Part shown: one piece after another, positions 55,696 through 56,987 of the stretch
Position numbering within the stretch: the stretch's first letter is position 1
Layout: each line of letters opens with the position of its first letter
Assembly: GCA_036785375.1 (NCBI GenBank)
Contig: JAWMAR010000054.1
Span: forward strand, 6,696,001-6,760,000
Direction of reading: 5' to 3'
Length of the DNA stretch: 64,000 nucleotides
Source of the DNA: Leucoraja ocellata
Lineage: Eukaryota
Program-made: the position numbers and the translations under genes
The notes under the pieces: model-generated
The model's database searches: none
The model's input: the letters and a program-made list of their open reading frames with translations, nothing else
Told to the model about the DNA's origin: nothing

Positions 55696-56987
55696 ATAAG
55701 CGAGTTCGGTATTCCGACTGTGCATGCCCAGGTCATAGGTCACTAGCTATAAACAGTCTCGGCAACAGTGTTGCTGCATTGTGTACAGGCTTGCGTTTCA
55801 TCTGTGGTCGGGGTTGGGCCCGGTTCTTCGTAGCTGTGGGTGCTGTTGAGTTGCTGCTGGGCCGTCCCTGTCCCCTCCCCCGTGTCCCGTCCCTTTCCTG
55901 AGATGTCCGGGGTGGCCCTGGACTGGCGGGGCGGCTCCAGACTTGCAGCTCGGCTCTGCCTGTCCCGCCAGGTTGGCCGGCAGCCCTCCACCTCCACCCT
56001 CCACCTCCACCCCCCACCCCCCAGTCCGACACCGAGATCCTGCTGAAGATGGGCAGCCACCGGCCCTACTCGAAGACAGGCGACTTGGAGCTGCAGCTGC
56101 TGGAGTCATCCTGGTCAGAGAGAGAGTTTGCGGATGGGCTTCTGCTGGCCATGGGCAGGCCGGGTGCCCACTAGAGCTGCTGGTGTTGTTGATGATGGTG
56201 GTGCTGGCGGCAGCAGCAACCTCCTCCACCTCCCTTGTCCAGCCCCAAGCCCAGAGTCCGGGCCATCTCCAACTCCAGATCGGGGCACAGTTGAGCGCCG
56301 GGCTGGAGGAGGCTGAGCCCAGGCTGGGGCTATGTCGCAGGCGAGGCTGGGACTCTCACTCCTCCTCAGGGTTGTGGATGAAGTGGCACAGTGTACCGTA
56401 GGGTCAGAAGCCGGTGGTGTGCAAGGGACGGCTTGTACTTGGGGTGGCGGCTGAGGGAGCGCAGCTCGGCCAGGCCGTGGGTGAACTGGCACTTGTCGCC
56501 GTAGCGGCCCGTTGGGGAGCGGCTTCCTCTGGAGTTGGAGCGAGGTTGGGCATGAGTTGGTGCTGGCTGTGGGCCTGTGGGTTCTCCGTGCTGACTGTGG
56601 GCGGTGTCCCGTCGGTCCATACGTCTCCGGCCGACCCCCGGGTGGGGATGGGACACTCCAGTGGGGGGGACGATGACCGGGGATGATCCAGTGGCGTTTC
56701 GGCAGCGCTTGCGGTGCCGGGGACACGGGTTCAATCCTGGCTGCGGATGAGGCGCGGTTCTGTGTATGTGCAGCTGCCGAGAGCAGGTCCAGTCTCCCCT
56801 CCCCCTCTCCCCCAGTCTCCCACTCGTATCTACCCCCTGACAAATACAAACTTGAAAAAAGACAAAAAATCGGAGCCAAACTATACTCACTGAATCTTTA
56901 GCGCTTTGTTCGATTTTTATTTATAGCGTTTGTACTTTGACAAATTGCATGATTCCTTCCGTTTTTCAGAATACCGAACTCACTTAT
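55696..56987. mobile_element. 1.3-kb non-autonomous TIR element carrying host-gene cargo (Pack-type)
   Basis: 22-bp inverted repeats ATAAGCGAGTTCGGTATTCCGA (55696-55717) and TCAGAATACCGAACTCACTTAT (56966-56987), 20/22 complementary; outer bases compatible with a TA or AT dinucleotide TSD. Confidence 0.75.
56021..56506 (-). pseudogene. ZFP36/TIS11 (tristetraprolin family) pseudogene fragment
   Basis: RYGDKCQFTHGLAELRSLSRHPKYK, then after a deletion/frameshift HTTGF*PYGTLCHFIHN, PRLRHS, and C-terminal SLSDQDDSSSCSSKSPVFE*GRWLPIFSRISVSD. Confidence 0.9.

Follow-up and report, generated by a model that had tools for sequence, protein, structure and literature searches.

How did a broken piece of a ZFP36-family gene come to lie between short inverted repeats in AT-rich, repeat-filled skate DNA? 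The piece sits at positions 55696-56987 of a 64,000-nucleotide stretch of Leucoraja ocellata DNA, which was analysed as a whole and is called the window here. The initial annotation, made from the letters alone, read this locus as a transposon with terminal inverted repeats (TIRs) and a captured gene copy, that is, as a Pack-type TIR element or Pack-TIR, and remarked that gene capture by such elements is much less documented in vertebrates than in plants. The remark was overstated, as a survey of animal genomes counts 370 Pack-TIRs in 55 of 100 genomes, vertebrates included (PMC8277862). In this study we examine the ends, the cargo and the setting of the element, and weigh the ways in which it could have been assembled.

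Results

A foreign block bounded by inverted repeats

The two arms, at 55696-55717 on the plus strand and 56966-56987 on the minus strand, are 22 nt long, match in inverted orientation at 20 of 22 positions (91% complementary) and stand 1248 nt apart, just as first annotated. The best inverted 22-mer between the zones 55200-56020 and 56510-57500 has these 20 matches, while the best in each of 500 block-wise dinucleotide, composition-preserving shuffles had 15-18, and none of the 500 reached 19 or more. Both mismatches, read from the sequence, are C/T at CpG, as expected of CpG decay, so that the ends were probably once perfect. The match ends at 22 nt with no inward extension. Within the 64 kb the arm sequence is present at two sites only, which are the two arms (blastn with word size 7 and a mismatch scan), and the other inverted repeats of the window are mostly opposed copies of interspersed repeats. 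A prokaryotic insertion sequence as the source of the ends was rejected, with zero exact matches to the arm ends in bacterial and archaeal genomes. A literature search for the TIR core returned only one mouse study, of no bearing on the element.

Composition changes abruptly at the same place. The GC fraction steps from 0.30-0.40 outside (about 40% in the kilobase on either side) to 0.64-0.70 in the interior, in agreement with the GC-rich cargo described at the outset, and the CpG observed/expected ratio, 0.27-0.29 in the flanks, rises to 0.46-1.39 in the five inner segments. The arms lie at the very borders of a block that is foreign to its setting.

Inward of the left TIR lies a subterminal arm (55718-55800) of about 49% GC with no match elsewhere in the window. 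It is followed by a stretch of 0.70 GC (55801-56020, minus strand) which, being past the old stop codon of the gene piece, is probably in part the 3' UTR of the parent. The gene piece itself (56021-56508, minus strand) is succeeded by a GC-rich interior (56509-56690), a degenerate piece resembling a tRNA-derived SINE head (56690-56770, plus strand) and a low-complexity stretch, pyrimidine-rich on the plus strand (56771-56836), that ends at the step from GC-rich to AT-rich DNA. The right subterminal arm (56837-56965, minus strand) is 34% GC and CpG-rich for its setting, and leads to the right TIR. No Pfam family was found in any of the seven stop-free frames of the element that were scanned. 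No RNA family reached its gathering score in the window, and the four matches inside the element are at chance level (E 3.7-4.3). The lack of a transposase, part of the original description, holds for the element frames and extends to the 155 ORFs of the window scanned against Pfam.

The cargo is part of a skate ZFP36-family gene

A stop-free frame of the element matches the solved fingers of ZFP36L2 and tristetraprolin (1rgo, 1m9o) with an E value of 1.6e-10. The same frame retrieved P0001, a protein of the skate Rhinoraja longicauda annotated as ZFP36L2-A-like, which itself matches the two structures with E values of 1.6e-35 and 1.8e-30. When frameshifts are allowed for, residues 119-289 of P0001 align to 56506-56024 on the minus strand with a score of 621, against 41-74 for eight shuffles. 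The alignment falls into three in-frame blocks, over which identical codons number 128 of 158 (81%). The hallmarks of the ZFP36/TIS11 family, namely CCCH fingers with the family linker and a conserved extreme C-terminus, were both found in the cargo, and the family assignment made by the initial annotation is thus upheld.

The copy spans 171 of 289 residues, about 59% of the protein or some 490 bp of coding sequence, together with the position of the stop codon. It starts just past the second Cys of finger 1, and holds the second half of this finger, the linker, a broken finger 2 and the conserved C-terminal motif. The C-terminus and parts of the fingers had therefore been recognised rightly, but the copy begins in mid-finger and never held the whole tandem finger region; likewise, it is a large piece of the exon, though "most of the main coding exon" goes too far for a piece without the first half of finger 1. 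Compared with P0001, the cargo has the same linker, the same Gly-rich insertion and the same C-terminus, but residues 1-118 are missing, four of the eight zinc ligands are absent, deleted or turned into stops, one Arg of the C-terminal motif is altered, and four stops interrupt the reading frame. We take the C-terminal letters of the cargo to be the CNOT1-interacting motif. In ZFP36 proteins, the C-terminal region is a CNOT1-interacting motif that recruits CCR4-NOT (PMC9476947), and the gene has two exons, the second of which encodes the fingers (PMC3546996).

The Gly-rich insertion is otherwise found in only two skate-type rows of the 12 compared. Identity is also highest to these skate-type proteins, with 128 of 160 columns for Rhinoraja and 131 of 161 for P0003, against 82-106 of 136-151 columns for four other rows of the batoid clade and 77-87 of 144-154 for six sharks. 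As the 12-row tree leaves the batoid branching unresolved, the skate link rests on this identity and on the insertion. From both, the cargo is most likely skate-derived and captured after skates split from other rays. Several batoids carry Pro instead of Leu in the lead-in to the second finger.

Which paralog served as parent was addressed at the protein level. The Tis11B_N domain (PF04553) is absent from P0001. In a tree of 32 named proteins, picked from at least 120 listed, including no named tristetraprolin (TTP) and drawing a long-branch warning, ten elasmobranch proteins form a group of their own (94/94, not starred), apart from the L1/L2 clade (100/100). ZFP36L1 and ZFP36L2 proper were rejected as the parent class, on the missing Tis11B_N and on this position in the tree. 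By elimination, the elasmobranch clade may represent the tristetraprolin ortholog, in a tree that has no named TTP and contains a second clade without Tis11B_N. In public annotation the members of the elasmobranch clade lacking Tis11B_N (P0001 and P0004-P0012) are labelled inconsistently as ZFP36-like, L1-like or L2-like. The parent gene is absent from the window, which frameshift-aware alignment covered for 55 kb to the left of the element and 7 kb to its right.

Decay of the cargo

Four stops lie in the gene piece (56404-56406, 56356-56358, 56171-56173 and 56066-56068), and the frame is shifted by two net deletions, one near 56431 (11 nt) and one near 56289 (22 nt), in agreement with the deletions and stops first reported. 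In finger 2 the first Cys is lost to a deletion and the second to a stop, and the old stop codon now reads Trp. The two deletions add up to 33 nt, so that the last block is again in the frame of the first; with stops in both later blocks, this is more likely a coincidence.

All 30 codon differences from P0001 are single-base changes, including 18 transitions, and 11 of the 30 are of the CpG type. Four are common to P0003, the second skate-type protein, and are for that reason counted as species differences. When X at stops and breaks is counted as a change, the cargo is altered at 15 of 81 shark-invariant columns and at 13 of 79 others (p 0.84), whereas two living genes compared in the same manner differ at 2 of 86 invariant and 22 of 75 other columns (p 9e-7). 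Given the four stops, the two frameshifting deletions and the even distribution of changes between conserved and variable sites, the decay of the cargo is best read as neutral, and the copy is evidently dead and predicted to make no working protein. The arms differ from each other at 2 of 22 positions, and the cargo has changed at some 26 of 158 codons, or roughly 7% of replacement sites. These levels of decay are of one order, which suggests that capture and insertion were close in age.

The remaining interior

Does the GC-rich interior upstream of the gene piece derive from the same parent? Profiles of the parent N-terminus, back-translated and run on 56509-56830, scored 18-21 bits against shuffle maxima of 19-22 bits and 101 bits for a positive control, and one of the four tests came slightly above its 25 shuffles. 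A protein-level aligner did extend into this part at low identity, but with scores at shuffle level the parent N-terminus was rejected as its source. Protein searches gave no match to the interior at 56509-56690. The coding homology to the parent is confined inside the arms, and starts in mid-finger.

Proteins that span a junction between gene piece and neighbouring interior were sought as well. One search returned two matches, both to the finger part only, and a second returned none; a third, among 1.84 billion representative proteins, likewise gave no junction-spanning protein. For a dead element all three are weak tests. The idea that the two GC-rich stretches flanking the gene piece are one interior split in two was also rejected, as 147, 561 and 72 of 1000 shuffles did as well; the 7- and 8-mers common to both stretches are marginal (53 and 39 of 2000 shuffles).

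The SINE-head-like piece, which the initial annotation had placed at about 56700-56750, matches a SINE-like copy at 26537-26810 at 24 of 33 bases, a score that 5 of 2000 shuffles reach for a pair picked post hoc. Against the whole window, it does no better than shuffles, so this part of the description stands on weak ground. The piece points away from the ZFP36 piece, and carries at 56727 what we take to be a B-box-like word. The cargo is composite, as had been proposed, in that the interior holds the gene piece plus other filler.

Segments of the element were compared with the rest of the window, using ten shuffles each. Five of six scored near the shuffle range, four of them at or below the maximum; the right arm reached 42 against a shuffle maximum of 40, and the sixth segment aligned with a purine repeat of low complexity at 50.1 kb.

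Some words of the element resemble transcription signals. The right arm, read on the minus strand, contains a TATA-like word at 56925 and an acceptor-like site that ends at 56837, exactly at the step from AT-rich to GC-rich DNA, and ranks 17th of the 8282 AG sites of the window with a rough matrix; a donor-like GTGAGT near 56893 is not among the best 3% of donors. Three ATGs lie upstream of the gene piece on the minus strand, two of them in its frame, and the one at 56620 is in frame. The TATA-like word, the acceptor-like site and the in-frame ATG may all be due to chance. Downstream of the gene piece there is no run of seven or more A or T and no AATAAA, and the sense strand of the element contains no ATTTA; the ZFP36 fragment accordingly lacks a poly(A) tail of its own, a feature that the initial annotation had named as counting against its reading.

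Target duplication and superfamily of the ends

The TA or AT target duplication first proposed can be fitted in either form. TA flanks an element at 55699-56984, AT flanks one at 55698-56985, and on these readings the duplication lies within the left arm as delimited above. Since both are self-complementary and lie inside the inverted match, a 2-bp duplication is uninformative alone. A third end definition, 55693-56989, fits too, and is flanked by a perfect 5-bp repeat, ATATG, at 55688-55692 and 56990-56994 (both on the plus strand). It costs two changes in the outermost left bases, and a repeat of this kind also arises in 71 of 2341 random pairs matched for AT content (3%).

Several superfamilies were set against these ends. 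A TA duplication with TIRs shorter than 100 bp, as in Tc1/mariner, is present. The hAT superfamily makes duplications of 5-8 bp (PMC4482050), and here the 5-bp ATATG fits at the cost given above, with no 8-bp duplication. ISL2EU elements have an AT duplication within A|AT|T and TIRs usually starting with GG (PMC4482050); this assignment was rejected, the base before AT being T rather than A and the ends starting with AA. PIF/Harbinger elements make a 3-bp direct TWA duplication (PMC4482050), and were rejected as the TAA on the left and the TTA on the right of 55700-56983 are inverted, not direct. A MULE was likewise rejected, with no 9-10-bp duplication at any of the ends tested and TIRs of only 20-22 bp. 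A Tc1/mariner element and a hAT-like element with a short duplication remain.

Surroundings in the window

LINE, Gypsy and Penelope-like pieces predominate in the window. A LINE fragment (55072-55592) ends about 100 bp to the left of the element and is 90% identical to a copy at 10.5 kb. Pfam scans of 16 long ORFs and of 139 of the 189 shorter ones, together with crude exon scans, gave retroelement domains and two sub-cut-off matches only, with no host exon and no transposase.

Some other features of the window were recorded. At 11368-16012 lies a Gypsy-type LTR retrotransposon with one uninterrupted frame of 1459 codons (reverse transcriptase, RNase H and integrase); its terminal repeats are 99.2% identical over 129 bp, and it is by all appearances a very young insertion. 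An older, broken relative (28400-32072) is 67% identical to it over 1.9 kb, and two Penelope-like GIY-YIG remnants (38410-38877 and 58310-58768) are 76% identical to each other. A CpG island at 1-760 (GC 0.66, CpG observed/expected 0.85) is likely the start of a host gene, and contains near 712-730 a promoter-like word that is presumably of the ZNF143 type. A unique AT-rich stretch at 52699-52859 on the plus strand lies between acceptor-like and donor-like sites, the donor at 52860 ranking third in the window, and is possibly an exon of a host or non-coding gene. At 50260-50790 the AT-rich DNA is interrupted by a GC-rich, low-complexity block, with a purine-rich repeat on one side and an assembly gap (50957-51494) on the other. 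The block has no Pfam match. It may be the interior of another non-autonomous element; the 12-base word that it has in common with the arm-cargo edge of the element is probably due to low complexity.

Discussion

Origin of the element

Taken together, the ends and the cargo make it quite probable that the element is a Pack-TIR of one kind or the other, either loaded and then moved or filled where it stands. We lean, at slightly better than even, towards a non-autonomous Pack-TIR that captured the ZFP36 fragment, then moved to this site and then decayed, since the parent is not near, as in the multicopy animal Pack-TIRs, which are all distal to theirs (PMC8277862), since the cargo has a composite make-up, and since the arms have decayed to much the same degree as the cargo. 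Moreover, ends that match beyond chance lie at the edges of a foreign block, the short direct duplications fit, and the homology to the parent is enclosed by the arms. Against this reading, neither the ends nor the interior have a second copy in the window, the junction-spanning protein searches were blank, and a 2-bp duplication that forms part of a palindrome is by itself uninformative. The search for the parent covered only 7 kb to the right, short of the 15 kb within which animal Pack-TIRs are often found. In the animal survey, only 4 of about 281 unique cases (1.4%) are multicopy, and most are single-copy and fit gap filling in place (PMC8277862).

The sequence of events could be as follows. 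During repair of a break inside the element at its donor site, the polymerising end would have switched template to exon 2 of a ZFP36-family gene of the skate, in the way that has been inferred for animal Pack-TIRs in general (PMC8277862). About 490 bp of coding sequence and some 3' UTR would have been copied between the arms, alongside the SINE-head-like piece and GC-rich filler. A transposase acting in trans would then have recognised the 20-22-bp ends and inserted the element, presumably loaded by that time, into AT-rich, repeat-filled DNA, where it would have been methylated and neutrally decayed. Sister copies would be expected to exist, and a large family is favoured insofar as a random window is likelier to fall on a member of a large family than on a single copy.

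In-place filling, in which a resident element broke, gap filling copied the ZFP36 piece into it, and the product never moved, is the strongest of the alternatives, and we consider it unlikely here. It is the commonest route in animals, a cargo-free orthologous element being known for 91 of 97 primate Pack-TIRs and multicopy cases being as rare as stated (PMC8277862), and it agrees with the lack of a second copy in the window and in the junction-spanning searches. Yet in 57% of such cases the parent is no more than 15 kb away (PMC8277862), and here there is none for 55 kb to the left or 7 kb to the right. A composite cargo would need several events at one site, and the similar decay of arms and cargo also speaks against it.

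The ZFP36 piece could instead be a reverse-transcribed mRNA fragment that landed in a TIR element, through LINE machinery or RNA-templated repair, with the SINE-like piece as part of the same chimera. We regard this as improbable, although the window is full of LINE reverse transcriptases, and ZFP36 retrocopies have arisen in rodents and probably in amphibians (PMC3546996). The gene piece is indeed 5'-truncated and intronless, but it falls within one exon; poly(A), a downstream AATAAA and ATTTA are lacking in the element sense strand, at most about 300 nt follow the stop, and the SINE-like piece is on the opposite strand some 180 nt away. Least probable of all is that the inverted repeat is no pair of transposon ends (but, for instance, two opposed scraps of another repeat) and that the ZFP36 piece is what is left of an ordinary dispersed duplication: the arms have been linked to no family, transposase or published TIR, and most other inverted repeats of the window are of the opposed kind, but the match is short and sharp, ends on a direct duplication and lies at both edges of the GC and CpG anomaly, two opposed scraps should turn up elsewhere in the window or show a longer match, and the flanks resemble ordinary host DNA in their CpG ratio.

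Meaning of the copy

No function is indicated for the present copy. As a single dead copy, the element provides an example from cartilaginous fish, with coding cargo, for a class whose surveys have dealt almost entirely with other animals. Were the element multicopy, it would join a very short list (four multicopy cases in 100 reference genomes, PMC8277862) and would inflate the number of ZFP36-like gene models in skate annotations. It would also offer a dated system in which to weigh capture followed by transposition against in-place gap filling, as skates decay slowly and several are sequenced. A bolder scenario can be drawn from the sequence, in which a skate-specific transposon family spread many copies of the C-terminal half of a tristetraprolin-like gene. 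The element itself would bring the transcription unit (the TATA-like word, the acceptor-like site and the in-frame ATG), and younger copies would make either a finger-dead protein with a CNOT1-binding tail or an RNA acting on the parent. That the element is multicopy is close to an even bet; that it is expressed and acts is a long shot, and the scenario as a whole is very improbable.

Comparison with known Pack-TIRs

The literature search found no earlier report of the skate element, in a collection that omits most subscription papers and repeat libraries; Repbase or Dfam may already list it. The animal survey lists zero Pack-TIRs for elephant shark, the one cartilaginous fish that a term search of 12 of its supplement files brought up, and neither "skate" nor "ZFP36" occurs in these files (PMC8277862). 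With a 1248-nt interior between inverted termini and a non-TE host cargo whose parent is recognised at the protein level in related skates, the element has the make-up of the animal Pack-TIRs, which hold 100-5000 bp of host sequence between the ends of one element, without transposase and in part with exonic cargo (PMC8277862). Exonic cargo makes up 13.4% of their cases and the median cargo is 224 bp, whereas the skate element combines about 490 bp of coding sequence with filler in a composite interior (PMC8277862). Their flanking elements belong to named families, unlike the skate arms, and the skate element is probably older than their 90% identity cut-off allows (PMC8277862).

Closer parallels are Pack-hAT-N8_XT, with a piece of the frog CAPSL UTR in three copies, and Drosophila Ssk-FB4, each of which also has a piece of a distal gene in a non-autonomous TIR element (PMC8277862). 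In both, amplification is demonstrated by distinct target duplications, while the skate element is known from one copy; Ssk-FB4 moreover contains nearly a whole gene that is translated, in contrast to the partial and dead skate cargo (PMC8277862). Finally, the skate element differs from the plant Pack-MULEs in its want of a 9-10-bp duplication and in its TIRs of 20-22 bp, but resembles them in general design, since these too hold gene fragments, often from several sources, between terminal inverted repeats (PMC8277862).
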